NCBI RefSeq assembly: GCF_035594765.1
Contig: NC_085842.1
Coordinates: 16,654,782-16,718,781, forward strand
Direction of reading: 5' to 3'
Length of the DNA stretch: 64,000 nt
Source of the DNA: Anolis carolinensis
Lineage: Eukaryota
Of the stretch, positions 51-62,505 are shown piece after piece. The translations under genes were made by a program, and so were the position numbers. Each line of letters starts with the position of its first letter. The stretch's first letter is position 1. Below the pieces are notes generated by a model. It worked only from the letters and a program-made list of their open reading frames with translations. It did no database searches and was not told the origin of the DNA.

Positions 51-464
51 CTGGGGCTTCTTCTGCTTTCGCTCCTTTTCTGCCCGACTCAGAAGGAAAC
101 CTTCAGCCAAAGCCACGGCCTGGGAACTGGTCTCTGCCCCACATTCCCTCACCCAGCGCTCCATCTCCGCAGGAAGGACGGCCAGGAACTGCTCCAGGAG
201 CACCAGGTCCAACATCTGGGCTTTGGAGTGCTTCTCTGGCTTCAGCCACAGGCGGCAGAGAGAGTGGAGGCGGCTGCAAACCTCCCGGGGCCCCTGAGCC
301 TCCTCATAGTGGAAGCGCCGGAAGAGTAGGCATTGAAGGTCTGAACGGAGCAGACTGCTTTCCAGATTTTGCTTCAAAGGGTCCTTCCAGAATGCTCCAC
401 CTCTCTCTGCCCCAATAGCAGAAAATGTTTCTAACTGGAAGCCAGCTGGCTTTTGCCTTTCCAT
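51..464 (-). CDS. Gene 0: SCAN-domain coding exon of a SCAN(-KRAB)-ZNF gene that continues off the left edge
   Basis: ATG at 464 (MERQKPAG...[78 protein letters not shown]); 138 codons; donor CAG|GTGAG at 51/50; acceptor TTTTCAG|G at 545/544. Absent from the ORF track because the frame runs off the window. Confidence 0.9.
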
Positions 465-622
465 CTTTGTTCAGTGCTTCTCAGGTGCCTCCAAAGTGGA
501 TGAAGAGTGTAGCCAAAGGCAAGGATTGAGTGCGCTGAAAGTGCCTGAAAAAAGAAAACAAGATAATAATGAAACTCTCATACTGAGGCTTCTGGGGCAA
601 GACAAATGATTGACCATGAATG

Positions 623-1077
623 TGTGAGGGGAGATGCTGGGATAGGGAGTTAATCAATCATCTGACACCCTGACTGTTTGATGAGTCAGTTCTCTCCGTC
701 TGCTCACCCGAAGGACCACTTGATGCAGCAGCAAAAGTGGCAACCAACAAAACAACAGCTCAGTCGCTGTTTTACTGCTGATCCCAGCAGGTCTACTTAC
801 TTTATTTTACAATATATTTACAATTACTGAAAGCCATAACTCTCTGGACACATGACACTTTTCCAATCGCAAGCTTGTCTGTACAAGCAGGCACCTCCTG
901 TATTCCTCAGTTCACGATGAAAGTTCCGGTCAAACGGAAGCCCTGACCTATTGGTCCTGTGAGCAATCAATCAAGCTGGCTTGTGCTTAACCCATGCGCT
1001 GCTGGAATGCTCTGCTGGAAACACCCAACAGCATAACTTGATATAACATTTCACTTTAACAACAAAATACACTAACA
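623..1077 (-). mobile_element. Solo LTR (455 bp)
   Basis: TG...CA termini, 5-bp TSD GAATG (618-622, 1078-1082); the empty site is visible in the duplicated segment at ~1529; AATAAA on the - strand at ~801. Confidence 0.8.
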
Positions 1078-1241
1078 GAATGTTAAATAGATGGCTGGCT
1101 TCTCACTATGGATAGACGGCAAAAGCCTAGATTCAAAGAAAGGATCCTGAACTTCTCACAGAACAAAGTCAGGGTCCTCTCAGTTGTTCCCACCCCCAAA
1201 TCTCTCTTCTTATTTGTGAATCCACTGCATTCTCAAACTTA

Positions 1242-1391
1242 GGCTGGATTTACACTACCCTAGCACCCAGGATCAGATCCCACATTATCTACTTTGAACT
1301 GGACTATATGAGTCTCCACTGCCATATAATTTGAGATAAGCAGATCATCTGGGATCAGATCCTGGAATATAAAGGCAGTGTAGAAGGTGCC
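1242..1391. mobile_element. Palindromic PIF/Harbinger-like MITE
   Basis: GGC-start imperfect terminal inverted repeats, internal palindrome, TTA/TCA flanks; related copies at ~31310-32230 and ~41505-41735. Confidence 0.55.
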
Positions 1392-1705
1392 TCAGGTGCC
1401 TCCAAAGTGGATGAAGAGAGTATTCAAAGGCAAGGATTGAATACTCTGAAAGTACCTGACAAAAGAAAACAAGATAATAATGAAACTCTCATAATGAGGC
1501 TTTTGGGGCAGGATAAATGTTTGACCATGAATGTTTAATAGATGCCTGGCTTCTCTATAGGGATAGAGGGCAAAAACCTAGCTTCAAGAGTCCTAAACTT
1601 CTCACAGAACAAAATCAGGGTCCTCTCCGTTGTTCCATCCTGCAAATCCTTCCTATTCCTTTCTCTTATTTTGTGTATCCCTCTGAATCCCTTGTTTTCT
1701 CAAAC
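1391..1705. repeat. Local duplication of 480-1238 (gene 0 acceptor region plus adjacent intron) without the LTR
   Basis: ctcaggtgcctccaaagtggatgaagag...gaccatgaatgt at both 480 and 1391; colinear apart from the 623-1077 insertion. Confidence 0.85.
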
Positions 1706-2277
1706 CCAGTCTTTTGACTGTGGTTATTGCAAGTCTTCCCACCCTGCAGACCCCATAGCTCCCACCCAAGAGATTCTGTTGCCTGAAGCTAAGGTCTAGG
1801 AAGCCTCCTTTTCTTGACCTTGCAAGAGAAACAGGGGGACCAGCAAAGGGTCTCTTCCACTGAATGTAGAGATCCCTTGATCCAGAGCCCCTTCCTCCTT
1901 CCACTAGACAAGGGGGTCTTAAGCCTGCCTCCAATGCTGCCTCCCAAATTCTGCAGGAACAACCCCCTCAGAAGATAATGTTCATGTCCAAAAAACATTC
2001 ACATCCTTCCCTCTCTCCACCCTCCCTTTCTGGGACAGAAAATGAGGGAGACCACTTTTGGCTCTGTCCCTCGCAAACCCCTCAGAGGAGCCCCTGCAAC
2101 TGAAGCCCCCTTTGGCAGGAAGGCCCATGCCAACTTTGGCCCTCCCTCCAGGTATTTTGGACTTCAACTCCCACGGTTCCTAACAGCTTACTTACAGTCT
2201 AGTAATTGTGGAAATTAAAGTCTAGAACTCCTGGAGGAGGGGGCGAAGTTGGCCCAGGCCTGATTCAAATTGTGTTC

Positions 2278-4027
2278 TTTTTGTGTTGTCCAAAGCTTTC
2301 ATGGCCGGAATTGCTGGGTTGCTGTGAGTTTTCTGGGAAATGTGAGTTGTTGGACAGCAGTGTAAGTGGGAAGGCTGTGGATGAAGTCAATAGAATGAAG
2401 AAGCAAACATGAAGTGGGTTGCTGTGAGTTTTCCGGGCTGTGTTCCAGAAGCATTCTATCGTGATGTTTCGCCCACATCTATGGCAGCCATTCTCAGAGG
2501 TTGTGAGATCTGTTGGAAACTAGCCAAGTGGGGTTTATAAATCTGTGGAATGTCCAGAGTGGGAGAAAGAACTCTTGTCTGAGGAAAGTGTGACTATTGC
2601 AATTGGCCAGCTTGATTAGCATTAAATAGCATGGCATATTCAAAGCCTGGCTGCTTCCTGCCTGGGGAAATCCTTCGTTGGGATGTGTTATCTGGCTCTG
2701 ATTGATTCCTATCTAGAAGTCCCCTGTTTTCTGAAAGTTGCTCTTTATTTACTTCCCTGATTCTAGAGGTTTTTTTAATACTGGTAGTCAGATTTTGTTC
2801 ATTTATTAGTTTACTTCGTTTATATCCTGCTCTTCTCACCCTGCAGGCGACTCAGAGCGGTGTATAACATATATTTAGGCAAACATTCAATGCCTCAATT
2901 ATATGAACATTATAAACATAAAATAAAATCATTAAAACAGTAAACATAAAAATAATTTAAAACCAGTAACATTAAACACGATCAATCTAATACACAATTA
3001 TCACATTGCACCAATCCTTAGTCATAATTCAGCTACTTCATTTCTAACCGAGTCATGACAGGATGCTGGATTGCATTTCTGTCACTCTCTGAAAGCCTGT
3101 CTGAATAGCCAATTCTTAACCTGTTTCCTAAATGCCAGGAGGGAGGGGGGCAATCTGATCTCATTGGGAAGGGTGTTCCACAGCTGAGGAGCCACCGCCG
3201 AGAAGGCCCTGTCTCTCGTCCCCACTAATCATGCTTGTGAAGGTGATGGAACTGAGAGCAGGACCTGCCCGGCACATCTTAGTGCTCAAACTGATTCATA
3301 AAGGGAGATGAGTTTTGATAGGTAAACTGGAGCCATTTAAAGTTTTATAGGCTAAAGCCAGCACTTTGTATTGTTCCCGCTAGCAAACTGGCAGCCAGTG
3401 GAGCTGACACAACAGGAGTGTTGTGTGCTCCTTGTACGCCTCTCCAGTAAGGAGCCTAGCTGCCACAAATTGGACTACTTGAAGCTTTTGAACAGTCTTC
3501 ATAGGCAGCCCCATGTAGAGCGTATTGCAGTAGTTTATTCAAGATGTAACGACAGAGTGGACCATTTTCATGGTTTCCTCCTGTCTGTTGAAAATTGTCC
3601 ACATGCTTGTGGATTTCAATGGCTTCTCTGTGTAGTCTGGCATGGTGGTTATGAAAGTGGTCCAGCATTTGTGTTCTCAAATAATATGATGTGCCCAGAT
3701 TGGTTCATCAATGTTTTGCTATGGCTGACTTCTCTGGTTGAATTAGGCAGCAGGTCCAGCTAACACCTCCCAACAAAGGAAGCAGCCAGGCTTTGAAGCT
3801 ACAACTCTACTCAATGCTAATCAAGGTGGCCAGCTGAAACATTCACACTTGCCTCAAACAGACAAGAGTTCTTTCTCCCACCCTGGACATTATTCCACAG
3901 ATATATAAACCTCACTTGGTTAGTTTCCAACAGACCTCACAACTACTGTGAATGCCTGCTATTGATGTGGGAAAAACGTCAAGAGAGAATGCTTCTGGAA
4001 CACAGCCCGGAAAACTCACAGCAACCC
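2278..4027 (-). mobile_element. Penelope-like element fragment with an inverted pLTR, interrupted by an L2
   Basis: pLTR/3' end on - strand 2278-2802, resuming 3564-3742 with endonuclease C-terminal residues (HHARLHREAIEIHKH); inverted pLTR copy on + strand at ~3743-4027. Confidence 0.75.
2803..3563 (-). mobile_element. L2 LINE 3' fragment nested in the Penelope element
   Basis: Reverse complement of the RT C-terminus (YCNTLYMGLP-like) plus L2 3' tail; homologous to 8430-9320. Confidence 0.75.
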
Positions 4028-4221
4028 ACTTCATGTTTGTTTTTTCATTCTATTGACTTCACCCACAGCCTTCCCACTTACATTGCTGTCCACCAACTCA
4101 CATTTCCTTATGAACATATAGAAGAAATAGGACACTGGAGAGTCTTGTGCAAATTGATTTTAAGGGAGTAAGCTGCTCCCTTAAGCTGCTATCTGGTATT
4201 TTCACTTACATATGCTTGTTT

Positions 4222-4553
4222 AAAGTAAAGGTAAAGGTTTCCCCTGATGTTAAGTCCAGTCATGTCTGACTCTGGGGGTTGGTGCTCATCTCCATTTCTA
4301 AGCCGAAGAGCCGGCGTTGTCCGTAGACACCTCCAAGGTCATGTGGCCGGCATGACTGCATGGAGCGCCGTTATGTTCCCGCCAGAACGGTACCTATTGA
4401 TCTACTCACATTTGCATGCTTTCGAACTGCTAGGTTGGCAGGAGCTGTGGCTAACAGCGGGCGCTCACTCCGCTCCCAGGATTTGAACCTGGCACCTTTC
4501 GGTCCACAAGTTCAGCAGCTCAGTGCTTTAACACACTTCGCCACCGGGGCTCC
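4222..4553 (-). mobile_element. Sauria SINE, full length
   Basis: tRNA-like head, caacctagcagttcgaaa/gtagatcaataggtacc core, (ACCTTT)n tail. Confidence 0.85.
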
Positions 4554-5686
4554 CCATGTTTATAGAAAGGCACTATTTGGAAGAAACTAAAGGTCTGTAG
4601 CTTTACCTATTGATACTTCTGCCTTCAACCCTCATGCAGATATTTACAGAGTAGAAATTAAAGTTTAAAGTCCTGGATAAGGATACAATGCATTTCTCAA
4701 TTCCCACAGGGGAGAAACCATCAAATATTGGGAGTATGCGAGTTCAGATTTGCATTACATCCAATAATTAATATGGGGTGGATTTCCTAAATGCTTTCAC
4801 TGGATAACTTTGTAGTTGGAAAAGCAATGTCATCAGAGAATCCAGAGAGATGTAAAAATGTTTCAGTGCTTGGAATAGTAATAATATTTATTTACATCCC
4901 GCCACCATCTCCCTGAAGGGACTCCACAGTACACATATAACATACAACGGGTAAAAATGGTACAAAAGTATAAAACAAGTCATATAAAATTATAACAACA
5001 ACCCCCGTCAACACATATAGCATAAAATCAGAATAATACAATGTTAAAACAACAGTAGATAATTGCAATCATTTCACAAAGTGCCAAATGGGCCCATTTA
5101 CAAGTTTCACTCAGTGCACTTTGCCCAGCTCATTTTATGTTTTTATTGCTGTGTTTTTCATGTGTTTTATAATGATTGTGATTTTTTAATGCCTTTTAAA
5201 TTTATTTGTGTGTTTTTGTATTTGATATTTGTATTTGATATCACTGTATGCTGGTTTTATATCTGTAAGCCGCCCCGAGTCCCTCTGGGGAGATGGTGGC
5301 GGGGTAGAAAAATAAAATTATTATTATTTATTATTATTCAGCCTACTCAAGGTCAAAGGCCTGTCTGAACATCCATGTTTTCAGGTTGGAATTGAAGGAT
5401 TGAAAGGTGGGGGCTAATCAAATGCAAAGAAATAGCTATTCCTCTTTTCAAAAGAGAATTTCTTTTTCTCTCTGAAATGTTAAGAGGCTTCCAAATACTG
5501 CATTATATATAATCCTGAATTTGGGTAGATAAAACAGTGATATTTCTTTCAAAGGAAGGTAAATGAAGTGAATTTGGGATAAGAAATATACAAATCCAAT
5601 ATGACAATGCGGTCTGGAGAGAGAAGCTGGGATATAAATTAAGCAAGTTGAAGAGCAGCTGGCAATTAGGAGCTGCTAGCAATTAG

Positions 5687-6022
5687 GAGATGGAGTGGCA
5701 CAATGGGCTAAACCCTTGTGCTGGTTGAATTGCTGACCTGATGGTTGGTAGTTCAAATCCATGAGATGGGTTGTGTCCTTATCCGTCAGCCCTAGCTTCC
5801 CATGTGGGGACATGAGAAAAGCCTCCCAGCAGGATAGTAACATTCACACTTGCCTCCAACAGACAACAGAGTTCTTTCTCCTACCCTGGACTTTCCACAG
5901 ATATATAAACAGCACTAGTCCAATTTCCAACAGACCTCACAACCTCTGAGGATGCCTGCCACAGACTTCGGCAAAACGTTAGGAGAACATGACCAGACTG
6001 CCCAGAAAACTCACAGCAACCC
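5687..6022 (+). mobile_element. tRNA-SINE 5' part joined to a Penelope pLTR fragment
   Basis: 5687-5842 matches the A-tailed SINE at 45821; ~5840-6022 is pLTR with a decayed hammerhead motif. Confidence 0.55.
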
Positions 6023-6239
6023 GATGTTCTTTTTGGCTGTGACTGTGGTTATTGTAGGGCTCCCCCCCCCCCCCCCCGCAGGTCCCACAATCTCAAGTGG
6101 TAGTAGTCCATCTTTTCATGATACCTTAATAAGAAGAGATTATATAAGACCAGATAAGGTAGGCAGCAGGATCCCTGGAGGGAAGAGTAGTTCCCTTGTC
6201 CCTTGAATATTGCCCTGGCCCGGACTGAACCTCCTTGAT

Positions 6240-6988
6240 TCGTGTCTGGGCAATGCTATCTACAGAACCACTAACCAACAAATGCTACATTCAGCAAAGG
6301 ACAAGAAGGATCATCTCGCCTCTGCAGGAGTCTCCTGTATCCCATGGAGCTGTGGACAAGTCTACATAGGGGACCACCAAACGCAGCAACGCCCAGACAC
6401 GAATCAAGGAACATGAAAGACACTGCAGACTGATTCAACCAGAGAAGTCAGCCATAGCAGAGAACCTGATGAACTAACCTGGATACAACATATTATTTGA
6501 GAACACAAGGCCACTCTAACAACCACCATGTCAGGTTAAACAGAGAAGCCATTGAAGCAAGCATATGGACAATTTCCAAAAAAGGATGAAACCATGAAAA
6601 TGAACAAAATCTGGCTCCCAGTATTCAAAAACTCTAGAATCAGGACAATAAATAAAGCAACACTCAGAAGACAGGGAAATTCCAGACATGAAACAACCAG
6701 GGCCAGCTAACACCGCCCAACAAAGGATTCCCCCAGGCAGTAAGCAGCCAGGCCTTGAAGATGCAAGGCCATTCAATGCTAATCACTGTGATTAATTACA
6801 ACATTTATACCAACAGACAAGTTCTTTCTCCCACCCTGGACCTCATTCCACAGGTAAATAAACCCCACTTGCCTAGTTTCCAACAGACCTCTCAACCTCT
6901 GAGGATGCCTGCTATAGATGTGGGTGAAACGTCAAAAGAGAATGCTTCTGGAACATGGCCAGACAGCCTGAAAAACTCACAGCAACCA
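6240..6988 (+). mobile_element. Penelope-like element 3' fragment: decayed GIY-YIG endonuclease plus pLTR
   Basis: AGVSCIPWSCGQVYIG (GIY-YIG signature) then RIKEHERHCRLIQPEKSAIAE; frameshifts and stops; followed by pLTR with hammerhead core. Confidence 0.85.
6894..6938 (+). ncRNA. Minimal hammerhead ribozyme motif in a Penelope pLTR (core intact, stem I damaged)
   Basis: CUGAGGA 6899-6905, stem II GCCUGC/GUGGGU, GAAAC 6926-6930, GUC; 3' strand of stem I reads AAA instead of AGG. Confidence 0.55.
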
Positions 6989-6998
6989 TTCATTATTA

Positions 6999-7327
6999 CA
7001 GTAGAGTCTTGCTTATTCAACTTTTGCTTATCCAGCATTCTGTATTATCCAATGCAGTCTGCTTTTTAGTAGTCAATGATTTCAATACATTGCAATATTT
7101 TATTGCTAAATTCTTAAATACAGTAATTACTAAATAATGTTACTGTTTACAGAACTGCGTTTTCTGTCGATTTGTTGTAAAACATGATATTTTGGTGCTT
7201 TATTTTCAAAATCATAACCTAATTTGATGTTTAATATACTTTTCCTTAATCCCTCCTAATTGTCCAACATTTTCGCTTATCCAATATTCTGCCGGCCCCG
7301 TTACGTTGGATAAGGGAGACTCTACTG
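6999..7327. mobile_element. Tc1/mariner-type MITE
   Basis: TA-flanked CAGTAGAGTCT...AGACTCTACTG inverted repeats; repeated TTATCCAAC motifs. Confidence 0.8.
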
Positions 7328-7514
7328 TATTATTATTGTTGTTGTTGTTATTTTACAGGGGGTTCTGGAAAGACTTGGGCTAAACATTTGGGCTATATTT
7401 CCACCATTCCTGATTTAGATACGATTTATTTTGAAACTTTCATCATTATATAGTTTTTGAAGCAAAAACAAAATAGCTGTTGTCTTTAATTACATTGCAG
7501 TCAATGTGAGAAAG

Positions 7515-7802
7515 AAGCCGGACTTGGCCACAGTGGTCCATGCTCTTGTTACATTCCGATTAGACTACTGCAATGCACTCTACGTGGGGCTGCCTTTGAA
7601 GACAGTTCGGAAGCTTCAATTAGTCCAATGGGAGGCAACCAGGTTGTTAACCAGAGCGGCGTACAGGTAGCGCACTAATCCTCTGTTACGTCAGCTCCAC
7701 TGGCTGCCGATTAGCTACCGAGCACAATTCAAAGTGCTGGCTTTAGCCTATAAAGCTCTAAATGGTTCTGGCCCAGCTTACTTGTCCGAACGTGTCTCCC
7801 GC

Positions 7803-7861
<59 letters not shown>

Positions 7862-8430
7862 GCATTTCTATACTGCTTTTCTCACCCTTGGAGGGGACTC
7901 AAAGCGGTTTACAACATAATAAATGGCAAAATTTAATGGCTTACACACACACACACACACATATATATATGTATCACATATTTAAATAAAAAACATACAA
8001 CTGTAGATTAAAGCAATTAAAACTATAAAAACATCAAACATCGACATATGTATGAAACATATTACAGCAATTAACATAGGTCCCTTCTCTATCCCCACCA
8101 CCATCCGCCATCTCCCTCTCCATAGAGTTTCAACCTATCTTTATATACCCTCCCTGCTCCCAAAGGGAGCAAGATGGTGGAGGCCCTCGTAATTTAAGAT
8201 CTCCAGGGGAGGCCCTGCTCTTGGTCCCACCAGCCTCACAGGTGCGGCTGGTGGGGACGAGAGACAGGGCCTTCTCAGTGGTGGCTCCTCGACTGTGGAA
8301 CTCCCTCCCTAGTGACATCTGGCAGGCTCCATCCCTTTTGAGTTTTAGAAATAAAGTGAAGACCTGGCTATGCGAGCAAGCGTTCACAGAATAGGTTTTG
8401 TTGGTTTCAACTCGGTCTGGACTAAGGTTT
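7515..8430 (+). mobile_element. L2 LINE RT fragment split by an antisense L2 tail with (ATT)n and (CA)n microsatellites
   Basis: RLDYCNALYVGLPLKTVRKLQLVQ at ~7557-7630; (ATT)n 7803-7857; L2 resumes at ~8185. Confidence 0.7.
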
Positions 8431-9320
8431 ATGTATAAGGTTTTGTGGATGCACTCCCCCTGAAGACACAGGTTTGCAGTCTGGGTGTTCTCCTGGACTC
8501 ATCGCTGAGCCTGGAACCCCAGGTCTCGGCAGTGGCCAGGGGAGCCTTCACACAACTCCGCCTTGTGAGCCAGCTGCGCCCGTTCCTTGGGAAGTCTGAC
8601 TTGGCCATGGTGGTCCACACTCCGGTTACATCCCATTTGGACTACTGCAACGCTCTCTACGTGGGGTTGCCTTTGAAGACGGCCCGGAAGCTCCAACTAG
8701 TACAACGGGCGGCAGCCAGATTAATAACTGGGGCGGCTTACAGGGAGAGTACCACCCCCCTACTTAGCCAGCTCCACTGGCTGCCGATATGCTACCGAGC
8801 CCAATTCAAAGTGCTGGTTTTGACCTATAAAGCCCTAAACGGTTCTGGCCCAATCTACTTGTCCGAACGTATCTCCTCCTATGAGCCAGGAAGATCCCTA
8901 AGGTCATCTGGAGAGGCCCTGCTCTCGGTCCTGCCTGCCTCGCAAACGCGGCTGGTGGGAATGAGGGACGGGGCCTTTTCGATCGTGGCTCCTCGGTTGT
9001 GAAACACCCTCCCCAGAGATGTACGACAAGCCCCAACCCTTTTGAGTTTTAGAAAAGCCCTGAAAACATGGCTATGTGCCAGGCTTTCGAAGATTAAATG
9101 ATAAAGACGACCCGGACTGATTTACGGCTACAGCACGAGGATTTTGGATGAACGGATTTTTAACCATGTTTTATATTTTTATATTGTTTTAATTGGATTT
9201 TCATTGCTATGTTTTAATTATGTGTAGCCATCGAATTGTTGCCAATTGTGTACACCGCCCTAAGTCCCTTCGGGTGAGAAGGGCGGGATATAAATGTTGG
9301 AAATAAATAAAAATAAAATG
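8430..9320 (+). mobile_element. L2 LINE 3' end (RT C-terminus plus 3'UTR)
   Basis: ORF 8445-9002 LGVLLDSSLSLEPQV...LDYCNALYVGLPLKTARKLQLVQRAAARLITG...LHWLPI; tail gtgagaagggcgggatataaat...aaataaa. Confidence 0.85.
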
Positions 9321-9356
9321 AATGGCTCAAGTATTTTGTATTGTTTTAAATCTGTA

Positions 9357-32421: not shown

Positions 32422-32835
32422 ATGGAAGAGCAAGACTCAGCTGGTCCTGAGTTGGAAACCGGCTGTGCTGCCACTCCGCTTGCAAGCAATGGGGAGTCCT
32501 GGGAAAGTAACCCAAAGAAGAGCTTGTCAGAAGATGTACTCAGTTCAGATGTGCAAAGGCAGCTTTTTAGGAAATTCCACTACCAGGGAGCCAAAGGACC
32601 CCGAGAGACTTGCAGCCAACTCCACACTCTCTGTTGCTGGTGGCTGAAGCCAGAGCGATACACCAAGGCGGAGATGCTGGACCTGGTGCTCCTGGAGCAG
32701 TTCCTGACCATCCTGCCCTGGGAGATGTCAGCCTGGGTGCGAGAGTGTGGGGCAGAGACCAGTTCCCAGGCGGTGGCTTTGGTGGAGGGCTTCCTCCTGA
32801 GTCAAGCAGAAGGGACCAAGGATGAGGAGAAACAG
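32422..32835 (+). CDS. Gene B coding exon 1: SCAN domain (exon starts 32307)
   Basis: [12 protein letters not shown]...[51 protein letters not shown]; donor CAG|GTAAA, phase 0. Confidence 0.92.
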
Positions 32836-36744: not shown

Positions 36745-36865
36745 GTGACCTTTGAGGAAATAGCTGTGGATTTCAGCGAGGAGGAGTGGGCCCTGCTGGA
36801 TCCGGGACAAAGGGCCCTTCATACAGAAGTGATGTCAGAGAATCTGGCCATCATGGCCAATCTGG
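36745..36865 (+). CDS. Gene B KRAB-A exon
   Basis: [40 protein letters not shown](G); 121 nt; canonical splice sites. Confidence 0.92.
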
Positions 36866-37575: not shown

Positions 37576-38785
37576 TGTGGAGTTGGAGGCTTGAATCGAC
37601 TGTGGTTCTTGCCTTCTTTCTGTGTCCTTTCTTGTCTAGTCTTCCATACACCTGTGGCAGAGTTTCTTTAACTTGTAACACTGACTTCTAAATGTGAAAT
37701 GTGTTTAGCTTTTGGCTCCTCTCAACACCTTCTTGCCGATGGTTCCAGATAAGCTGCTGGAATTGGTCATGAGGCTCTGCCTCTCAGGGGCGGTCTTAAA
37801 GGGATCTCCCAACTTTGTCTTGTGGATACAGATGTGCAGGATGTCTGGAAATCCATATGAAATCCACCTGATTTTTTTAAAAAAATTGTACCATGCACTG
37901 TTGTCAGTGTTACTCCAGAAACCGCTTAGACTGGTGATTCATGAATGCTGGTTTTCCAGATATTTGCAATTTCAGCTCTTGGAACCAAAGTTTGAGAACC
38001 ATTGGCTTAGACAAAATTATAAACAGAGTTATTCTCCTGAAACTTACATCTACTGTACTTATAGGCATAGGACTCCCACAAAAGTGGAAAAACCTCCCCC
38101 ACTCTCTTTCTCTATATATACACACACACAACGTTCTATGTTGATCATATAATTGCACTGGAAGACCTGCAAATGCCTAGAAAGGTTTTTTCACTAGGAA
38201 TCTTTAGGCCAGGTCTGCACAGCCTATGGTCTTCCAGGTGTTTTGGATTTCAGCTCCCAAAATTCTTGACTATTTGACAAGCTGGCTAGGGCTTCCTTGA
38301 GTTGGAGGCTCAAATACCTGGAGAGCCACAGGTTGTGCAGGCCAGCTCTAGACTCTTAAGCGTGATTCTGTAGCTGACTTCGAGACGAGAACCTAGAGAT
38401 TCCTAGGGAGAATATATTACTCAAATCTGTAATTAATCAGATCAAATTATGCCTGCCAATGTGGAGGGCTGATGATAAATGGAATCTCAAAAAGGATATT
38501 GTGTTGAGATATGAAAAAGGAGCTTAGCTGGGGTCAACCTGTTTGCAGAATTCTTTGCAAAATGGATGCAATGAAAAAGAGGAAGTTTATTGAAACTCAT
38601 GCAAAAAATGACTGCAAACCGGTACATTTAGCAACTACATTCCTTTTTTTAACTGGAGATTCTGGCAGAGGGTCCCTGCATGGAAGCTGGTTGAATTAGT
38701 TGGCACTTGTGGTCTCTTCTAGTCATTTGAGTCTGTGATTCTGCTTCTTGTTTGGGCTCTGATCTTTTGTTTCTTGCCTTTCAAG

Positions 38786-40311
38786 GTGGAGATGGGCGAG
38801 ATCATGGAGATGAAGAGGAACCGTATGGGACTTTCCTTGGAGGAGGCCAGTGTAATCAGAAAGAAGGACAGGAACCCAAAGCTGACCATCAAGAGAGGAG
38901 CAGGGACCCCTGTGGAATCTCATGTGAGGAAATAAAGCAAAATGAAGCGGAAGAAAATGAATACCTTTGCCACGAATGTGGAAGAGGTTTCAGCTGTCCA
39001 ACAAGCTTCAGCCTTCATAGGAAGACTCATACAAAGGGGACACTACCCATAGACAGTGAGGGTCCCAAGGCCTGCAGTGTTGCCAAGTGCCTGCCGCCTC
39101 ACAAAACAGACACAAGAGAACAACCACTTATGTCACTGTGGTGTGGAAAGAGCTTCAAATGGGGCTCACCGTTGTTCTCTCCTCCAAGAAACCACATCAA
39201 AGAGCAACCCTTTAAGTTAGGGGAATGTGGGAGGATCTTCAGTCAGAAGGCACACTTCTCTCTTCCTCAAGGAGAGAACCCCATTCCAAACATGGATCAC
39301 GGAACAAGCTTCACTTCCATGATAAATGTCACTCCTCCACAAGGAACCGAGCCAGGAGAGAAACCATTCAAGTGTTTGGAGTGTGGGAAGAGTTTCACTC
39401 AGAAGACACACCTGGTTTGTCATCAAAGAAGCCATTCGGGGGAGAAACCATTTAAGTGCTTTGAGTGTGGGAAAAGCTTTGGGTGGAAGTCGAGTTACAC
39501 AAACCACCAGGCGACCCACACGGGGGAGACGCCCTTTCAGTGCCTGGACTGTGGAAAGAGCTTCGGGCGGAAGACGAGCCTCATTAACCACCAAGCAACT
39601 CACAGAGGAGAGAAGCCATTCACATGCTTGGAGTGCGGGAAGAGTTTCCGATGGAAGACCAGCCTCACGAACCACCAAGCCATCCACACGGGAGAGAAAC
39701 CCTTTCAGTGCCTGGAGTGCGGCCAGACCTTCAGCCAGAAGGTGCACCTCACCTCACATCAAGCCACTCACACGGGGGCAAAGCCCTTCGAGTGCTCGGA
39801 GTGCGGCAAAACGTTCATGCAGAAGACGCGTCTCATTTGCCACCAGGCGGCTCACAGGGGGGAGAAGCCCTTCAAATGCGCCGAGTGTGGAAAGAGCTTC
39901 AGCTGGAAGACCAGCCTCACAACTCACCAGGCCTCTCACGCAGGAGAGAAGCGGTTCCAGTGCTTGGAGTGCGGGAAGAGGTTTGAGCGGAGGATCCACC
40001 TCCTCCGTCACCAGGGGACTCACACCGGGGAGCAGGCCTTCCAGTGCTTGGAGTGCGGGAAGGGCTTCAGCTGGAAGACCAGCCTCATCAACCACCAGGC
40101 CACTCACACGGGGAGCAGGCCCTTCCAGTGCTTCCACTGTGAAAGGAGCTTCCGGCAGAAGGCCCATCTCACTTCCCACCTGTCTACTCACACCGGGGAG
40201 AAACCCTACCAGTGCCTGGAATGTGGGAAAAGCTTTTGCTGGAAGACCAGCCTCATAAACCATCAGGCATCCCACACAGGCGAGAAGCCCTTTCAATGCT
40301 TGGAGATCTGA
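38786..40311 (+). CDS. Gene B terminal exon: spacer, 12 intact C2H2 fingers and ~4 degenerate fingers
   Basis: TTTCAAG|GT phase-1 acceptor in frame with ORF 38752-40311; last finger truncated (CLEI*). Confidence 0.93.
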
Positions 40312-46671: not shown

Positions 46672-47121
46672 ATGGCTCTTCTAGCCCTGCTGGAGCTTGC
46701 CTGGAAGAACAGGTCGCAGGTGGAAAAGCAAGACCTCTCTGGCCCCGGGTCAATGGAAGACTCTCCTGCCATTCAGAATGGGAGTGGAGGACAGCTTTTG
46801 GGAAAGACGTTACCAGGGAGTGCTCTGAGTTCAGAGACAGAGCGCCAGAGTTTCCGACAGCAATGCTATGAGATGGACAGCAACCCTCGAGAGATTTGCA
46901 GCCGCCTCCACTCTCTCTGCCGCCTGTGGCTGAAGCCCGAGCGACACTCCAAGGCGGAGATGGTGGACCTGGTGCTCCTGGAGCAGTTCCTGGCCGTCCT
47001 TCCTGCGGAGATGGAGCGCTGGGTGAGGGAATGTGGGGCAGAGACCAGTTCCCAGGCCGTGGCTTTGGCTGAAGGATTCCTCTTGAGTCGGGAAGAAGAA
47101 AAGACACTGAAAGAACAGCAG
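46672..47121 (+). CDS. Gene C coding exon 1: SCAN domain
   Basis: [11 protein letters not shown]...[51 protein letters not shown]; CAG|GTGAGA, phase 0. Start codon uncertain. Confidence 0.88.
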
Positions 47122-48621: not shown

Positions 48622-48622
<1 letters not shown>

Positions 48623-53101: not shown

Positions 53102-53165
53102 CCCAACATGATTTTCTCCTTGGGGGTGAGCGTTTCCTGCTCACCAATAATGTTTCTGTGTCCAG

Positions 53166-53286
53166 GCCATCTTCCAAGAGGTGGCCGTGTCTTTCAGTAA
53201 GGAGGAGTGGGCCCTGCTGGATCCGGACCAAAGGGACTTACATCAGAAGGTCATGGAGGAAAATTTGGAGGCCGTGGCCTCCTTGG
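53166..53286 (+). CDS. Gene C KRAB-A exon
   Basis: [40 protein letters not shown](G); 121 nt. Confidence 0.92.
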
Positions 53287-53590: not shown

Positions 53591-53725
53591 GAGCTGGTGA
53601 CTGGGAGAATGTGAAAGAAGAACTAGTCAGGTCATTGATGGAAGGAGACAGATCCGCAGAGAGAGAAGACAGAGTTATCTCTTTTTGGACAGTCAGACAG
53701 ACGGAAAATGGTCCAGAAAAATCAG
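53591..53725 (+). CDS. Gene C spacer exon (separated from the finger array)
   Basis: TTTCCAG| GAGDWENVKEELVRSLMEGDRSAEREDRVISFWTVRQTENGPEKS CAG|GTAATG; phase 1 to 1. Confidence 0.7.
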
Positions 53726-54264
53726 GTAATGGGTCAAAGGCTAGGGCATTGTAATTCTTATTTGTAGTGCAAAAAACGATAAAAGAACAATGCAATATTT
53801 AAAATGAAGAACAGTTTTAACCAACATAAACTTACCAGTGTTTCCGTGGGAGTGAGGGCCTGCCTTTGGATGATGAGATGGTCAAGTTACTTAGGCCTGT
53901 TGTACCTCCAAATTTTTTCAGACGTAGGGGGACCCTATGTCTAAAATTTAGAGTGGGAGCTGGGTAAATGGCCTTGGAGGGCAACATTTGACCCACAGGC
54001 CTTGGTTTGGGGACGCCTGACCTTGAGGTTTGAGTGTTGGACTATGACTCTGGAGACTAGGCTTCGATTCCTTCCTTGGATACTTGGGCAAGTCACATTC
54101 AGCCTCAGAAAACCCTGTTCACTTGCCAGACAAGAAGTCTAAAACAGCCCAAAAGAGCTTAATAAACACCTATATGTCCCTCATTCCAGGTTTAGGCATT
54201 ACTTACTCCAGTATTTTCCTCTTTTTATATAAGTTTTGGTATGCTCAAACCACAGCATTTCTCC

Positions 54265-55320
54265 AATTTTTGGAAAATGGAAATCTCCATAACGTTTTGG
54301 AGATGGTATGATCTTAGGAAAGGCATGACCTTGTTAAAAGTCATAACCTTTTGAAAAATGATGTCATAACCTTTTAGGAAATAGCATTCAGGCAAGGCAA
54401 TTAGGTTGTTCAGCTGTTAGACTGATTTTTTTTCTGTGTCAGGAGCGACTTGAGAAACTGCAAGTTGCTTCTGGCGTGAGAGAACTGGCCATTTGCAAAG
54501 ACGTTGCCCAAGGGATGCCTGGATGTTTTGATGTTTTTACCTCCTTGTGGGAGGTTTTTCTCATGTCCCCACATGGAGCTGGAGCTGATAAGAGAGGTTG
54601 GATTTGAACCGGCAACCTTTAGGTCAGCAACCAAACCTCCAAGTCAGCAGTCCTGCTGGCACAAGGGTTTAACCCACTGTGCCACCGGGGAAGCCGGGTG
54701 TTAAACCGATGTACCTAGATACGTCTTTGAACAGTTAGGGACAAAGATATGCCAGTGCACAAATTCAGAAGTGTTCTTTTTAGGTGGCCAAAAAAATCTA
54801 CTCTCCCTTAAAACATATTTGCATTTAAATCATGCTTTCCAGAGACAAAAATAAGCAGACTTCTTTAAAAGTAACATAGTTGGTTTACTCACAAACTTCA
54901 TGTTCTCAGCATACAGGTATTTTGCATAGCGATCCAGTTAAAGATAGAATTTGAAACAATATCTCTGTGTAAATAACACAGGGCGTCTTTCTTATAATCA
55001 ACAGTCCATAGTCTGAACCATCTTTCTTTTCTGAGAATCTAATAGAGCCTGTCTAGTCTGAAAGTCCAAAGGATTCTTATCTCTACTGACATCTGAAAGC
55101 ATACATCTGTTTCTACTGAAGTCTCTAAGCATACTGTTTCTAAAATGGAGTCTGAGTCCTGAATAGTCCCAGATCTGATCACATGTTCTGTACCCCTCCC
55201 ACAACACAGAGTTAAGGAAAACTGCATATCAATACACACATATACAATACAGTAAACAATCTGAATTATATACACAACAAATAACTAGTGGAGGCTTAAA
55301 GAAGGTTGCTATTTCCAACA
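54265..55320 (-). mobile_element. LTR of the 20314 family with a nested A-tailed SINE (54426-54695)
   Basis: Ends gaaggttgctatttccaaca; internal homology to 50665-51774. Confidence 0.72.
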
Positions 55321-55473
55321 GCTCAAACCATAACATTTTCCTCAATGTAAGAAGAAAGTTATACTGAAACACCTCCCTTTACCAAAATGACTTTTCTTGT
55401 AATTTTAAACTATTTAATGAGCACTTTAATCTGATTATACCCATTATTTTTTCTCATTTTCCTCATCGTCAAG

Positions 55474-56669
55474 CAACTCACAGAGAAAAGGAATCATTTC
55501 AATACCCGGACTGTGGAAAGAGCCAGGAGATGTACCTCTCTGGCCAGCAAACAACATATACTAAGAAGAAGCCCTTCAAGTGCTTAGAGTGCGGAAAATG
55601 TTTCAGTCAGAAGATCAGTATAGCTTGTCATCAGGCAATTCACACAGGAGAGAAGCTGTTTACTTGTTTGGATTGTGGGAAAAGTTTCAGTCGGAAGAGA
55701 AGCCTCACGTGTCACCAAGCGATTCACACTGGGGAGAAACCCTTCAAATGCTCGGCGTGTGAAAAGAGCTTCAGCCAGAAAATACACCTCACTAATCATC
55801 AAGTAACCCACACAGGGGAGAAGCGGTTTCCATGCCCTGAATGTGGGAAGCATTTCAGTCGGAAGGAATACCTCCTTTCCCATCAGGCGATTCATTCTGA
55901 GGAGAAGCCATTTAAATGCCCAGAGTGTGGAAAGGGCTTCTGTCAGAAGAAACATCTCACCTATCATCAAGCTACTCATACTGGGGAGAAGCCATTCCAA
56001 TGCTTGGAGTGTGGAAAGTCTTTTATTCGGAAGGAACACCTCACTTGCCACCAAAAAACTCACTCCGGGGAGAAACCCTTCAAATGCTTGGAGTGTGGAA
56101 AGAGCTTCCGTCAGAAGGAATACCTTGCCTCTCACCAAACCATTCACACAGGGAAGAAACCCTTTAAATGCGTAGAATGTGAAAGCACTTTCACAGAAAA
56201 AAGAAGTCTAATTGACCATCAAGCAACACACTCTGGGGAGAAGCCATTCAAATGCTTGGATTGCGGGAAGAACTTCAGGCGTAAGACCCACCTCACAGTA
56301 CATCAAAGAATCCACACAGGAGAGAAACCCTTTAAATGCTTGGAGTGTGAAAGAAGCTTCAGTCTGAAGACAACGCTCCATCTTCACCAAGCTACACACA
56401 CAGGTGAAAAGCCATTTAAATGCCCTGAGTGCGGGAAAAGTTTCTCCCGAAAGACTCGACTTACTGCACATCAAGTCATTCACACCGGAGAGAAACCACA
56501 TAAATGCTTGGAGTGCGGAAAGAGTTTCAGTTGGCAGCGAAGCATGATTCGTCATCAGATAACTCACACAGGAGAGAAGCCATTTGCATGTTTGGAATGT
56601 GGAAAGAGCTTCCTTCGGAAGACAGACCTCAAGCGTCATCAAGCAATTCACAAAAGGGAAAAGCATTGA
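55474..56669 (+). CDS. Gene C terminal exon: 13 C2H2 zinc fingers
   Basis: ORF 55530-56669; predicted phase-1 acceptor (pyrimidine tract...GTCAAG|) keeps the frame with exon 53591-53725; frameshifted finger remnants follow the stop. Confidence 0.88.
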
Positions 56670-56933
56670 CAAGTTTGGAGTGCGGGAAGAGTTTCTCCCA
56701 GCAAGTTCGTCTCATTTGTCACCGAGGGGGGCAGTCGTTGAAGTGCTCAGAGTATAGAAAGCAGTTTTCCTTCAGCCAAAACCATGAGGGGCCTGAACTT
56801 TTGTTATAGAGAAAACAGAACTGAAAAAGTATTATTTTAGGGGTTTTGTGGGGATTATTAGAATTAAAAAAGGTTTCTTTCTGAACATACTTCTTTTAAT
56901 GAAATGTCAAATAGAGAGTTCCTGAAAATATCA

Positions 56934-56939
56934 AATAAA
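56934..56939 (+). terminator. Candidate polyadenylation signal of gene C
   Basis: First AATAAA after the stop codon. Confidence 0.35.
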
Positions 56940-57639
56940 GAGTTCCTGAAAATAATTAGAGAAGGGTTCAAGTTCGACAATGTTCAATGCCAGCAGAATG
57001 TTGGATAAGCAAAAATGTTGGCTAATAAGGAGGGATTAAGGAAAAGCCTACTAAACTCAAATTACTTTATGATTTGACAAATTAAGCACCAAAACATAAT
57101 ATTTTATAACAAATTGACAGAAAAAGCAGTTCAATACATGGTAATGTTATGTAGTAATTACTATATTTACGAATTTAGCACCAAAACATTGCAGTATATT
57201 GAAAACATTGACTATAAAAACATTGGCTACTAACAAATTGACTACAAATAAAGACAGAATTGCATAAAATGAACGTACAGTTACAACATTGTCGGAAGTG
57301 AAATCCGCAAAAAGTTCAGTCCTTGCTGCCTAGAGAAACAGCTGTGGATCCGGTGGGAGGCAAAGTGTGTTGGATAATCCAGAACATTGGATAAGCGAAG
57401 GTTGGGTAAGCGAGAATTTACTGGATATATTTGCTAGGTTGCTGTGAGGTTTTTGGGCTGTATGGCCATGTTCCAGCACCATTCTCTCCTGACGGTTCTG
57501 TTGAATGCCAGCCACAGATGCAGGCGAAACGTTAGGAGAGAATGCTACTGGAACATCACAGAAAAACTCACAGCAACCCAGTGATTCCAACCATGAAAGT
57601 CTTCGACAGTACATTAAGCATAAATTTTGATGGATTACT

Positions 57640-58002
57640 ACTATTTTTTAAAACATGTTATCAGAAAAAAGCTTTAGGATTTACAGAAAATAACATGAAT
57701 GTTGTAATCATGAGCAACATGACTTTACTCTTATCAGTCCAAAGTCTATGTGGTGTCTCATGGACCCTGTGCTCTAATGGAGTCTAAGTCTAAACATCTC
57801 ATGGTTAAAGCATTTCTGTGTTCTAAAATGGAGTCTGAGCTCTCAACAGTCCCAGATCTGATCATGTGGTTTGCAGCCACTCCACAACCTCAAGAAACAT
57901 AAAGGGAAATCCGCATATCAAAACGCACATATACAATACAGTAAGCAAACAGAATCATATACAAACAAATTACTAATGGAAGCATGAAGAAGGTTGCTAC
58001 AG
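57640..58002 (-). mobile_element. Partial LTR of the 20314 family
   Basis: atggagtctgag...cagatctgatcatgt...gaaggttgcta homology. Confidence 0.6.
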
Positions 58003-58867
58003 AATTGACCCTGGAAATTAGAATGTATAATTCACAAATTGAGAGCACTTTGAATCTAACTGATGATGGATCTTCACCAAACTTAACACACAATACCCTA
58101 TACGACCAGCTCTAAATACTGGCAAGGCTTTGGGCGGGTTGACCTATAATGTTGAGAGTTGCATTTCACCCGCTCCCAAAGAACACTGTAACTCCTACTA
58201 ATGATGGATCTGTGCCACACTTAGCACATATATCAATCATGACCAGCTGAAAACAACAGGGAGCTACATCAGGGGGATGAACACAGGAGCAGGGGAGTTG
58301 TAGTTAACTTGCATCCAGAGAGGCCTATGAATTGTGTTGTTTATTTGTTCAGTCGCTTCCAACTCTTCGTGACCTCAGGGATCAGCCCAGGCCGGAGCTC
58401 CCTGTCGGCCATGGCCACCCGCAGTTCCTTCAAGGACAAGCCAGTCCCTTCAAGGATACCATCCAACCATCTTGTCCTTGATCAGCCCCTCTTCCTTTTC
58501 CCTTCCATTTTCCGCAACATCATTCTCTTCTTCAAGCTTTTCTGTCTTCTAATTATGTGACCTAAGTACTTCATCTTCATCTCTAATATCTTTCCCTCCA
58601 GTGATCAGTCGGGCATTATTTCCTGGAGTGGTTTGATCTTCTTGCTGTCCAAGGCACTCTCATAATTTCCCCCCAACACCACAGTTCAAAAGCATCTATC
58701 TTCCTTCGCTCAGCCTTACTTATGGTCCAGCTCTCGCACCCATAGATTACTATGGGGAATACTATTGCTTTAACTATGCGGACTTTTATTGCCAGTATGA
58801 TGTCTCTACTCTTCACTATTTTATTGAGGTTGGACATTGCTCTCCTCCCAAGAAGTAAAAGTCTTCT

Positions 58868-59076
58868 GGGTTGTTGTGTGTTTTTCGGGCTGTATACCCA
58901 TGTTCCAGAAGTATTCTCTCCTGACGTTTCACCCACATCTATGGCAGGCATCCTCAGAGTTTGTGAGGATGTGGACAAAACATCATGAGAGAATACTTCT
59001 GGAACATGGCCATACAGCCATGGCCAAACACACAACAACCCTGTGATTCCGGACATGAAAGCCTTTGACAACACAT
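58868..59076. mobile_element. Short Penelope insertion made of inverted pLTR halves
   Basis: TSD TAAAAGTCTTCT (58856-58867, 59077-59088). Confidence 0.8.
58918..58961 (-). ncRNA. Minimal hammerhead ribozyme motif (core intact)
   Basis: - strand ACU-CUGAGGA-U-GCCUGC-CAUAGAU-GUGGGU-GAAAC-GUC-AGG. Confidence 0.6.
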
Positions 59077-59270
59077 TAAAAGTCTTCTGATTTCCTGGCT
59101 GCAGTCTGTGTCTGTAGTAATCTTCGTGCCTAGAAATAAAAGTGTCATTGCCTCCGCGTTTTCTCCCTCTATTTGCCCGTTATCAATCAGTCTCATTGCC
59201 ATTATCTTGGGTTTTTTTATGTTTAACTGCAACCCAGCTTTTGCCCTTTCTTCTTTCCGCTTGGTGATAA

Positions 59271-61280
59271 TGTTGTCGACCGCACTTTAGGGGATCGGGC
59301 CCTTAAGGAGAGACCCGACCCGGTCCTGAGGGAACGGACCTTGGCGAAGCCAAAAGGAGAATATAAGCCGCAATACAACCTGAAGCCTGAAATGAAGAAG
59401 GTCCGCCAAAGGTGAAGGAAAATCCGCCAAGGAGTCTTTATTGAGCAATTCAGCTGAAAAGGACGCTAATAGCGATCATTCAATCTACTAGCGTAACATG
59501 TGTTTCAAATAAAGCCATATTTATACAATGTTTCGGTCTGACAGCCCTTTGAATTTCCCGCCCCGCTCCTCCGCCCATCTGATCGCGGATAGGCTAGAGG
59601 GTTGAACGAGGCGGGCTTTCGTTTCCCGCCTTGCTCCGCTGGCCCAATAGGGAGCTGCTTTTTGTCCCCACCCGGGCCAATCGGGAAGGGGAAAGGCGGG
59701 AGTTATTGGAACAATGAAGTGACAGGACAGGAAATATCAGATTAATCCTGGCCCAGCCGATTTCTAAAGGAATTAATGGCACCCATCAAGGATGTCCGGG
59801 GTCCTGTCACGTTCACAGATGGTGTCAGGGAGAAGTGAAGAAGGGTGGTGATGAACCGTCATTGACGGGCTCCACAGGGGTGCCTTCCTGAGGCGTCCTG
59901 GCCTGGGATATGACAATGTTTGCCTTGGGGCCGAGTCACCTTTAGGAATTTGGTGACTCAAGCCCTATATTGTCCATGCAATCGGAATGAGATTGGATTA
60001 AACTGTGGCACATTATCCTTTTGTTTTTTGGGAAGGGAGGTTTGGGTCATAGGGCTAAGGTTCATGTTGGGGTCATAATGTTTCCCATTTGATTTCATGA
60101 TTTGACAATTATATGGGATAGAATGAAAATTAAAATATAGTTGGAACATAAACCCTGCTGGGAAGAATACATATTTTCCGGGGATCCCAAAGAGTACAAA
60201 TACATATAGGCAGATAGATAGATTTCAAGGAAATAAAGAAGAATCCATAAAGGTGGGTGACATTGCATAAAGGGGAATCATGAATGATATAAACAATTGA
60301 AAACATTTGATAAGAACGAAGTTTACAACATCTGGGGAACCCAATATAGAAGTGGAGTTCTAGCAGCATGATTTCACAATTCAGGAAGTTAGCCCAACGA
60401 TTAGAAGTTCATACAGCAGTGAGTCATGAGAGTGTCCAAGTACATAGAATATGAAAATTCACAAATACATGAGGAAAAAGAGTTCATAAGGAATTCATAG
60501 AGATGGCATGGGAAGGGGCACATGTGGGTTGTAGTCTTTGGAAGTATAGGATTTCATAAGTCCAGGGATAGGTCTGGGGAAGAGTGTTCTTCTCCTTCAT
60601 AAAATTATGAAAGTATGAATGAAACGTGGAGGGCACCCGTCCGGGCACCCCCTGGCAGCTGTAGATAGGGTAAGGGTTCTTGGAGAACTATGTTTCCCCA
60701 GCGAGAGAGCGATCCCCCCATCCCCAGTCCACAGAAAGGGGCTAGGGATCTCTTAAAACCATTCCGCGGGCCGCGGGGAGAGGAAAGTCCGGGATAAGGC
60801 TGGAGGAGGGCAGTCGGTCCCGTTTGACAGTCAGCTGTTGAGGTGCCGAAAACTGGACCGATTTCGGTTCCGCTGGTTGTCTTCGAGTCAGGAGCCTTAG
60901 AAAGGGTTAGGACTAAAAGAGGAGCGTTCTAGGGGTAATTTTGATAGAGATATGAGCCGATTTGTATCGTCCGCCATATTAATCTATGGCGGAGAAACCT
61001 CAGCCGGAGTTAAAGGGACAGGAGAGAGAGAGAAATTGCATGCGGAGGAAGGAGTCAGAGAAAGACACAAAATAACCAGATAGAGAGTGTTATTGTTAAA
61101 ATAAATGCTATTTTTATTGGAGGGTTTTGTTACATAGATCAGGGAAGGGGAAAATGAAGAAAGAAAAAAAGTCTTTTAATAATAGTCTGCTGCGGTCCCG
61201 CTTCGTTCCTTTGGTGAGTGATCTACGGAACTCTCCGCTGCGTTTTTAAATTAATTTAAAAGCCGGGGTTTCGGTTATCA
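59271..61280 (-). mobile_element. Very long solo LTR (2010 bp), CpG-rich
   Basis: TG...CA termini, 4-bp TSD ATAA, precise interruption of the BovB RT frame; - strand TATAAATA ~59520 and AATAAA ~59438; GC and CCAAT boxes at 59555-59690. Confidence 0.85.
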
Positions 61281-61899
61281 ATAAGGCTCCTCAGCTCCTC
61301 CTCGCTTTCAGCCATCAGAGTGGTATCATCTGCATATCTAAGGTTGTTAATGTTTCTTCCAGCAATTTTAACTCCAGCCTTGGATTCATCAAGTTGCATG
61401 ATGTGTTCTGCATACAAGTTGAATAGGGAGGGTGAGAGGATACAGCCCTGCTGTACACACAGACCAATGTTATACCTTCCACAGGAGGCTTTTTTTCGTA
61501 GTAAATTAATAGAGTTGCAATATTTACAATCACAAGGTTTCTATAACACAAATAAACAAACATATAGTACCTTTACAAGTAGCAGCCTTCACACACGGGA
61601 GCTTTAAACACAAGGCTTCTCTCAGACTGATGTTTACCTCACACTGACGGAGGAGTTCCCTCACTGAGGCAAACTACCTCTAACAGGCTTCAGCCTACTC
61701 ACTCTTTTGGTGCTTGAGCCACACTTTTGAAATTAAAAACACCCCAGTTAATATATAATATTTCTGACAAGGACCTCAGTTTGGGAACTGTTGCTTTAAG
61801 TTATTGGAACTGCATCTCTCCTAGTCTTTCAGAGGGAGGTTTTGCTCTGGTTTACCAAAGAGTTAAAGCAAATGATATGGATTCCTAGAAGGGAAGTCA

Positions 61900-62505
61900 A
61901 TGGCCAATGCTAAGCCTCCTGCAGGCGAGGTCCCTCCTCTTCTGGCCATGTGGGAATCTTCCTGGAGGAGGAGGAGTGAGTGGGTGAGCCTTGCAAGGCT
62001 TGTGGAGGAGGAGAGAGTGTGCCTTCCCAAGAGGGAGATGGCTCTTCTGCCCAGGCTGGAGCCTGGCTGCAAGGACACAGGGCAGGTGGGAAAGCAAGAA
62101 GCCTTAGACCCTGAGCCAAGCAAGGACCCTCCTGCCTTTCCTGCTGGGAATGGAGGGCAGTTCTGGGAAGGAGGCCTTGTGGGGAAGGGGCTGCGGGGAG
62201 ACAGCCCACCTTCAGAGGCAGCGCCAAGCCAGAGCTTCAGGCAGTTCAACTACAAGGAGACTTTGGGGCCCCGAGAGGTTTGCAGCCGCCTCCACTCTCT
62301 CTGCCGCCTGTGGCTGAAGCCTGAGGAACATACAAAGGCGGAGATGCTGGACCTGGTGCTCCTGGAGCAGTTCCTGGCCGTCCTTCCTGCGGAGATGGAG
62401 CGCTGGGTGAGGGAATGTGGGGCAGAGACCAGTTCCCAGGCTGTGGCTTTGGCGGAAGGATTCCTCCTGAGTCGGGAACAAGAGGAGACAGAGAAGCAGC
62501 AACAG
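61900..62505 (+). CDS. Gene D coding exon 1: SCAN domain (probable acceptor 61832/61833)
   Basis: ...[51 protein letters not shown]...; CAG|GTGAGA. The start could be a downstream Met. Confidence 0.88.

Follow-up and report, generated by a model that had tools for sequence, protein, structure and literature searches.

Homogenization of the SCAN core among SCAN-KRAB zinc-finger genes of Anolis carolinensis, probably by recurrent gene conversion

The window analyzed here, a stretch of 64,000 nucleotides (nt) of Anolis carolinensis DNA (C2:16654782-16718781), lies within a cluster of SCAN-KRAB-zinc-finger genes and contains five SCAN exons, assigned to genes 0, A, B, C, and D, together with three KRAB-A exons and three C2H2 zinc-finger arrays (of 18, 12, and 13 fingers). 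We conclude, at a probability of roughly three in four, that the ~207-nt core of the SCAN exon is homogenized among paralogs by recurrent interlocus gene conversion and that this is mainly a by-product of protein constraint. If the by-product and adaptive versions of the process are taken together, domain-restricted concerted evolution by gene conversion is very likely. The core is codons 7 to 75 (207 nt), counted from window position 12510 in gene A.

Divergence across the SCAN exon and the pools of SCAN genes

Synonymous divergence was compared among 51 genes (gene B excluded; 1275 pairs) from two tiled regions, one of 664 kb surrounding the window and one of 400 kb (7.3-7.7 Mb). The uncorrected synonymous divergence (pS) is 0.040 in codons 34 to 75, 0.139 in codons 7 to 24, and 0.448 in codons 25 to 33. 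Outside the core, the N-terminus has a pS of 0.471, the exon tail one of 0.431, and KRAB one of 0.533. In codons 34 to 75, 98 of the 126 columns are invariant among 52 genes, and the ratio of nonsynonymous to synonymous divergence (pN/pS) is ~0.27. The 608 pairs between clusters 9 Mb apart have a core pS of 0.038 compared with a KRAB pS of 0.698, and the core pS of opposite-strand pairs (n = 310) is 0.040. The first-pass annotation, made from the sequence of the window, had proposed gene conversion that is restricted to the SCAN domain and works even between inverted copies; these values support that proposal and extend it to clusters 9 Mb apart.

Between divergent subfamilies, divergence in 15-nt windows is 0.36-0.59 upstream, drops to 0.01-0.03 within the 3' core, and climbs again to 0.52-0.63 before the splice donor. 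Because this change takes place upstream of the splice donor, the edges of the tract lie inside the exon. They coincide with a drop in amino acid conservation, measured in 250 squamate SCAN domains from outside Anolis, from 0.74-0.89 inside the tract to 0.42-0.67 outside it.

Within the window, the 100-nt block reported by the first-pass annotation is indeed identical in genes 0 (100-199, minus strand), A (12622-12721), and C (46976-47075), with two differences in gene D (62360-62459), and all four genes carry an exact copy of its 41-nt block (238-278 on the minus strand and from 12543, 46897, and 62281). The description of the SCAN core as almost invariant is limited to these two blocks, because the full 207-nt core differs by 12 to 17 nt among genes 0, A, C, and D, mainly in a 15-nt hinge patch and in the 5' part. 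The N-terminus and KRAB are strongly diverged, as had been stated (the KRAB pS among the four genes is 0.61), but the KRAB exons of genes A, B, and C still align, with 73-79% nucleotide identity. Likewise, the claim that CpG sites are preserved needs qualification: a transition is present in at least one copy at 11 of the 16 CpG positions, although just 39 of 832 copy-site cells are mutated. Gene B had been considered excluded from the exchange. Its core is 35/207 nt away from the pool consensus and differs from those of genes 0, A, C, and D by 34 to 40 nt, yet 44 consecutive nt are identical to the consensus (P = 0.019), and codon 38 is the species-typical Leu.

A 51-nt piece of the core has 62 exact matches in the genome (40 forward and 22 reverse), all on C2 at 5.1-19.1 Mb, while the reversed control has 0. 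The tiled regions yielded 56 SCAN matches, from which 53 full-length exons were kept after a 5' fragment and a frameshifted copy in two pieces were dropped. For all but one of these exons (52/53), the tile also contains a KRAB exon, and the remaining one sits at the tile edge. The 100-mer is exact in 22 of the 53 exons and has one mismatch in 22 more. Since 37/53 exons carry the exact 51-mer, we infer that this pool, group I, comprises roughly 90 genes. The matches do not fit copies of a Gmr1-like retrotransposon capsid, which would be dispersed and have protease, integrase, and reverse transcriptase downstream: 62/62 exact matches are on one contig, and KRAB and fingers come after the SCAN exon in the tiled copies. 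SCAN matches on contigs C29, C38, C52, C83, and C99 mirror C2 9-10 Mb with identical scores and are probably haplotig duplicates.

A second pool, group II, is located at C2 17.7-19.05 Mb (L131-L160) and is represented here by the best 30 of the 150 listed matches, to which all group II values refer. Its core p is 0.027, compared with an N-terminus p of 0.20. Group II differs from group I at 31/207 nt and in 16 synonymous codons, the longest common run is 23 nt, and its loci are interspersed between group I genes. The SCAN domains of record P0006 and of Anolis sagrei records P0254, P0262, and P0273 look like group I/group II mosaics, a hint of rare leakage between pools.

Gene ancestry, mosaic tracts, and comparison with Anolis sagrei

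Core sequences have lost most of the record of gene ancestry that the flanks retain. Distance in the core is not correlated with flank distance (Mantel r = 0.04-0.06, P = 0.11-0.20), while KRAB distance is correlated with N-terminus distance (r = 0.72, P = 0.001). On the N-terminus tree, the retention index of the core is 0.37 and that of other parts is 0.62-0.72. There is no significant distance decay within the 16.5-17.1 Mb cluster (r = 0.08, P = 0.11).

Individual copies carry what look like transferred tracts. A linked three-substitution patch is present in 5 of 81 copies, including gene 0, which belong to unrelated subfamilies and are located at 5.1, 7.5, 7.6, 16.7, and 17.5 Mb. Half-homogenized genes L161, L162, and L165 have an old 5' half, with 9 to 14 differences in nt 18-71 (compared with a mean of 1.8), and 0 differences from the consensus in nt 143-224; these genes and L168 were chosen for their exact 3' match to the consensus. 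The divergent 5' half of L168 is close to that of its A. sagrei counterpart P0320, with 2 differences compared with 7 from the consensus. The linked patch and the half-converted genes are stronger signs of transfer than homoplasy at CpG sites. In a separate observation, the copy at C2:7636318 and P0264 have identical upstream (36/36) and tail residues and 4 core differences, including the hinge, which may be a segregating conversion tract.

In order to compare species, we used 23 group I domains with KRAB from A. sagrei, having dropped P0001 (which lacks KRAB) and P0320 (which is outside the pool). On a quick flank tree (106 columns), 12 changes of species label are required, deep subfamilies mix both species, and A. 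sagrei monophyly is rejected (approximately unbiased [AU] test, P = 3.2e-6). Judged from these flanks, the group I subfamilies predate the split between A. carolinensis and A. sagrei. The cores tell a different story. Codon 38 is Leu in 49/52 genes of A. carolinensis compared with 0/23 in A. sagrei (21 Ile and 2 Val), and Leu is rare at this codon outside Anolis (17/250 domains). Conversely, an S/T-ILPP patch is found across subfamilies in 7/23 A. sagrei domains and in 0/51 A. carolinensis pool genes. Over codons 34 to 75, 4 residues separate gene 0 and L008 from the putative orthologs in A. sagrei, P0273 and P0262, and none separates them from the consensus of their own paralogs. In group II, codon 17 is Asp in 30/30 A. 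carolinensis domains compared with Ser in 24/24 A. sagrei domains. At the protein level, group I genes older than the species split share species-specific variants in the core, in line with the within-species clustering of SCAN cores that had been predicted for conversion. A count of cases in which the nearest A. sagrei paralog was compared with the ortholog (22/23) was set aside as biased, since it takes a minimum over about 20 against one.

Mechanism and alternative explanations

The mechanism that we propose would work as follows. Short core tracts would be copied between dozens of old paralogs, whatever their orientation or distance (up to 14 Mb). Selection on the SCAN protein would keep this block, the sole long contiguous conserved coding stretch, above the similarity that recombination needs, which for ectopic events in mammalian cells means near-identity over about 200 bp; because protein constraint slows its drift, only the SCAN core would offer a long near-identical stretch. 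Conversion would reset silent and CpG changes and so keep the core above the similarity threshold, while the parts that lie below it would escape conversion: the KRAB exon, at 120 nt, the N-terminus, which drifts, and the finger arrays. SCAN sets that are ~15% diverged (group II and gene B) would form separate pools even inside the same cluster.

The GC content at fourfold degenerate sites is 0.72 in the core, 0.67 in KRAB, 0.49 in the N-terminus, and 0.35 in the fingers, and the singletons comprise 26 strong-to-weak and 3 weak-to-strong changes. The singleton skew and a Tajima's D of -2.1 suggest biased or majority-favoring conversion plus selection. The idea of a promoter hotspot was rejected, as SCAN exons are not CpG islands (observed/expected about 0.2-0.4). 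PRDM9 was not detected in A. carolinensis (PMC5519329), which we do not link to the tract.

Several points weigh against recurrent conversion as a by-product of constraint. The similarity-threshold step is one that we infer. Some ancestry signal is left in the core: of 22 informative sites, 7 retain clustering on the tree of the flanks (P = 0.02 or less), and core distance is slightly lower in the youngest pairs (0.019 compared with 0.029). Homoplasy at CpG sites can come from recurrent mutation, and the negative Tajima's D is a poor fit to simple neutral conversion. The species comparison is at the protein level only and depends mainly on one residue and the S/T-ILPP patch, and the 23 A. sagrei domains were drawn from two annotation sets (12 + 11), so that some genes may count twice. 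The species evidence is weaker for group II, because its N-terminus tree (49 columns) did not reject A. sagrei monophyly (AU P = 0.197).

The first-pass annotation had proposed that conversion keeps dimerization interfaces compatible, letting varied finger arrays be combined. In this adaptive form of conversion, which we consider unlikely, selection would favor homogenized cores because they let proteins with different arrays heterodimerize inside a pool. Helix limits were taken from a single-sequence AlphaFold model of low confidence (predicted local distance difference test [pLDDT] score of 51), used for limits only, which agrees with alignments to PDB structures 3LHR, 1Y7Q, 2FI2, and 4E6S. 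The homogenized tract is predicted to span helix 2 to the middle of helix 5. In Zfp206, the dimer core consists of helices 2, 3, and 5; helix 4 takes no part in dimer contacts, and the choice of partner is influenced by helix 1 (PMC3458555; PMC5509000). The core interface helices therefore fall inside the tract, which is what selection for compatible dimers would predict, as are the low pN/pS of codons 34 to 75, the variety of the finger arrays (425 distinct fingerprints among 759 fingers), and the rarity at which Tajima's D suggests that variants are kept. However, helix 4 and silent sites are equally homogenized. Helix 1, the reported determinant of selectivity, is outside the tract and not homogenized (40 variants among 52 genes), and the hinge remains dimorphic. 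Because helix 1 varies and the hinge is dimorphic, universal dimer compatibility does not follow from the sequence.

The hinge patch (codons 25 to 29) is the predicted helix 2-3 loop, just before the lysine mapped to Pfam position 41; K41 has been noted as a SCAN dimerization residue (10.1101/2025.03.03.638093). Its haplotypes, EEHT, ERHS, and EKHS, are up to 5 linked bases apart. EEHT and ERHS occur in both species, in 25/52 and 17/52 domains of A. carolinensis and in 4/23 and 12/23 domains of A. sagrei, respectively; these forms are shared by both anoles although the residue nine codons away turned over. One speculative extension, which we regard as doubtful, is that conversion splits several hundred SCAN genes into dimerization pools, each with a constant core interface, within which partners would be set by helix 1 and by the two-state hinge near Lys41, the latter maintained by balancing selection across anoles, in a protocadherin-like combinatorial code for transposon-binding factors.

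A single recent spread, whether by whole-gene duplication or by one wave of exon or segment shuffling into older genes, would explain the star-like frequency spectrum and the fact that some subfamilies are young. It is highly improbable as an account of group I, since the subfamilies are common to A. sagrei (by the AU test given above), tract ends differ from gene to gene while several haplotypes circulate, the edges are within the exon rather than at splice sites, and A. sagrei has its own homogenized variants. The possible segregating tract at C2:7636318 is a further hint against it. Group III provides a contrast case. In 19 of 20 fetched loci (L181-L199; C2 0.03-2.7 and 8.5-10.1 Mb), which are 10/207 nt from group II, the flanks and the intron are near-identical too, and this group has the look of a very recent whole-gene amplification.

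The first-pass annotation had also offered an overlapping DNA- or RNA-level element (a protein-binding site, small-RNA target, or RNA structure) as the source of nucleotide constraint. Near-invariance extending to silent sites in codons 34 to 75 is what such an element would produce, but there is no Rfam match in the window and the folding z score is 0.55. Moreover, group II is similarly homogeneous on a different sequence, and the consensus residue turns over between species. This alternative is unsupported and very hard to credit. Least probable of all is an assembly or polishing artifact that collapsed reads from similar cores: the assembly has haplotig-like duplicate contigs and the case rests on assembled sequence, but the copies contain 39 private single-base variants, A. 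carolinensis records whose flank residues differ from those of the assembly (P0250, P0258, and P0283) carry the same cores, and A. sagrei has a parallel pattern with other residues.

Window features, related systems, and implications

All five SCAN exons of the window match Pfam SCAN (PF02023) at 112 to 120 bits (cutoff, 27), and five PDB SCAN structures were matched. In genes A, B, and C, a KRAB-A exon and a tandem C2H2 array lie downstream on the same strand. By domain content, the window genes are SCAN-KRAB C2H2 zinc-finger genes, with dimerization through SCAN predicted. Feature coordinates are given in Table 1.

Table 1. Coordinates of SCAN, KRAB, and zinc-finger features in the window
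Feature	Position	Strand	Basis or remark
Gene 0 SCAN core (codons 7-75), homogenized tract	87..293	-	Pfam SCAN PF02023
Gene 0 copy of 100-nt block	100..199	-	
Gene 0 hinge patch, KPEKHS type	225..239	-	
Gene A predicted SCAN helix 1, outside homogenized tract	12468..12524	+	Low-confidence model (pLDDT 51), alignment to 3LHR, 1Y7Q, 2FI2, 4E6S
Gene A SCAN core, predicted helix 2 to mid helix 5, homogenized tract	12528..12734	+	
Gene A hinge patch, codons 25-29, KPERHS type, predicted helix 2-3 loop	12582..12596	+	
Gene A KRAB-A exon, not homogenized	17516..17635	+	
Gene A zinc-finger reading frame, 18 C2H2 fingers	21438..23282	+	
Gene B SCAN core, mostly outside pool (35/207 nt differ)	32596..32802	+	
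Gene B 44-nt run identical to pool consensus, possible short tract	32663..32706	+	Codon-shuffle P = 0.019
Gene B KRAB-A exon	36745..36864	+	
Gene B zinc-finger reading frame, 12 fingers	38731..40308	+	
Gene C SCAN core, homogenized tract, KPERHS hinge	46882..47088	+	Hinge patch 46936-46950
Gene C KRAB-A exon	53166..53285	+	
Gene C zinc-finger reading frame, 13 fingers	55368..56666	+	
Gene D SCAN core, homogenized tract, KPEEHT hinge	62266..62472	+	Hinge patch 62320-62334

The KRAB exon of gene A, which has EGEL at the conserved EEEW motif, is closely matched by an exon 9 Mb away (C2:7.357 Mb) in which the motif is altered in the same way. Otherwise distant KRAB exons (C2:16.571, 16.746, 16.858, and 7.38-7.44 Mb) have an NTDQR patch in common, which is a possible short KRAB conversion. 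The finger frame of gene B stops within a finger, and that of gene C is without the usual upstream spacer; either gene is possibly broken. Three A. carolinensis SCAN-KRAB records (P0284, P0293, and P0310) are fused to transposase-like Pfam domains (PF13359, PF03184, and PF03221).

The closest known parallel is provided by the clustered protocadherins, in which conversion is restricted to ectodomains EC5-EC6 (Noonan 2004, as cited in PMC2764143). There too, one domain has far lower synonymous divergence, the specificity-bearing parts diverge, and trees must avoid the converted region. In contrast, the SCAN tract is a sub-exon segment of ~207 nt, spans inverted genes and clusters 9 to 14 Mb apart, and belongs to pools defined by sequence. 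Within the protocadherin cluster of the anole, little conversion is seen, with synonymous divergence (dS) ratios of 2.25-7.89 compared with about 13-18 for SCAN (KRAB/core, uncorrected pS).

Over 300 SCAN-containing models have been described in A. carolinensis (PMC3971581). The genes studied here have the SCAN exon, KRAB-A exon, and single finger exon in the same order as amniote SCAN-KRAB C2H2 genes, for which lineage-specific expansion and purifying selection on the SCAN domain have been described, without the word "conversion" in the accessible text (10.1101/2025.03.03.638093). Conversion among paralogous zinc-finger genes has been detected with GENECONV in poly-zinc-finger expansions, most frequently in chicken sets (PMC2604467), but that study concerns scattered short tracts that were filtered out, includes no lizard, and does not describe family-wide, domain-bounded homogenization. 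PRDM9 is a KRAB zinc-finger gene with concerted evolution of its finger array, which takes place between repeats of one gene and on the fingers, while in the anole SCAN genes it is between genes and the fingers are spared. No report of SCAN-domain gene conversion was found in the literature searched, which most subscription papers lay outside. Domain-restricted concerted evolution of the protocadherin type is itself an already known mechanism.

SCAN trees have been read as evidence of rapid lineage-specific expansion in squamates (10.1101/2025.03.03.638093). If cores convert within species, such trees would misdate duplications and hide orthologs, SCAN dN/dS values among paralogs would be affected, and old genes could be mistaken for recent duplicates. 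These genes also offer a clean natural system for testing how far ectopic conversion in vertebrate DNA depends on similarity, tract length, and distance (9 to 14 Mb, in both orientations). Finally, since the dimer core is constant and helix 1 and the hinge vary, natural variants could be used to test SCAN partner selectivity.

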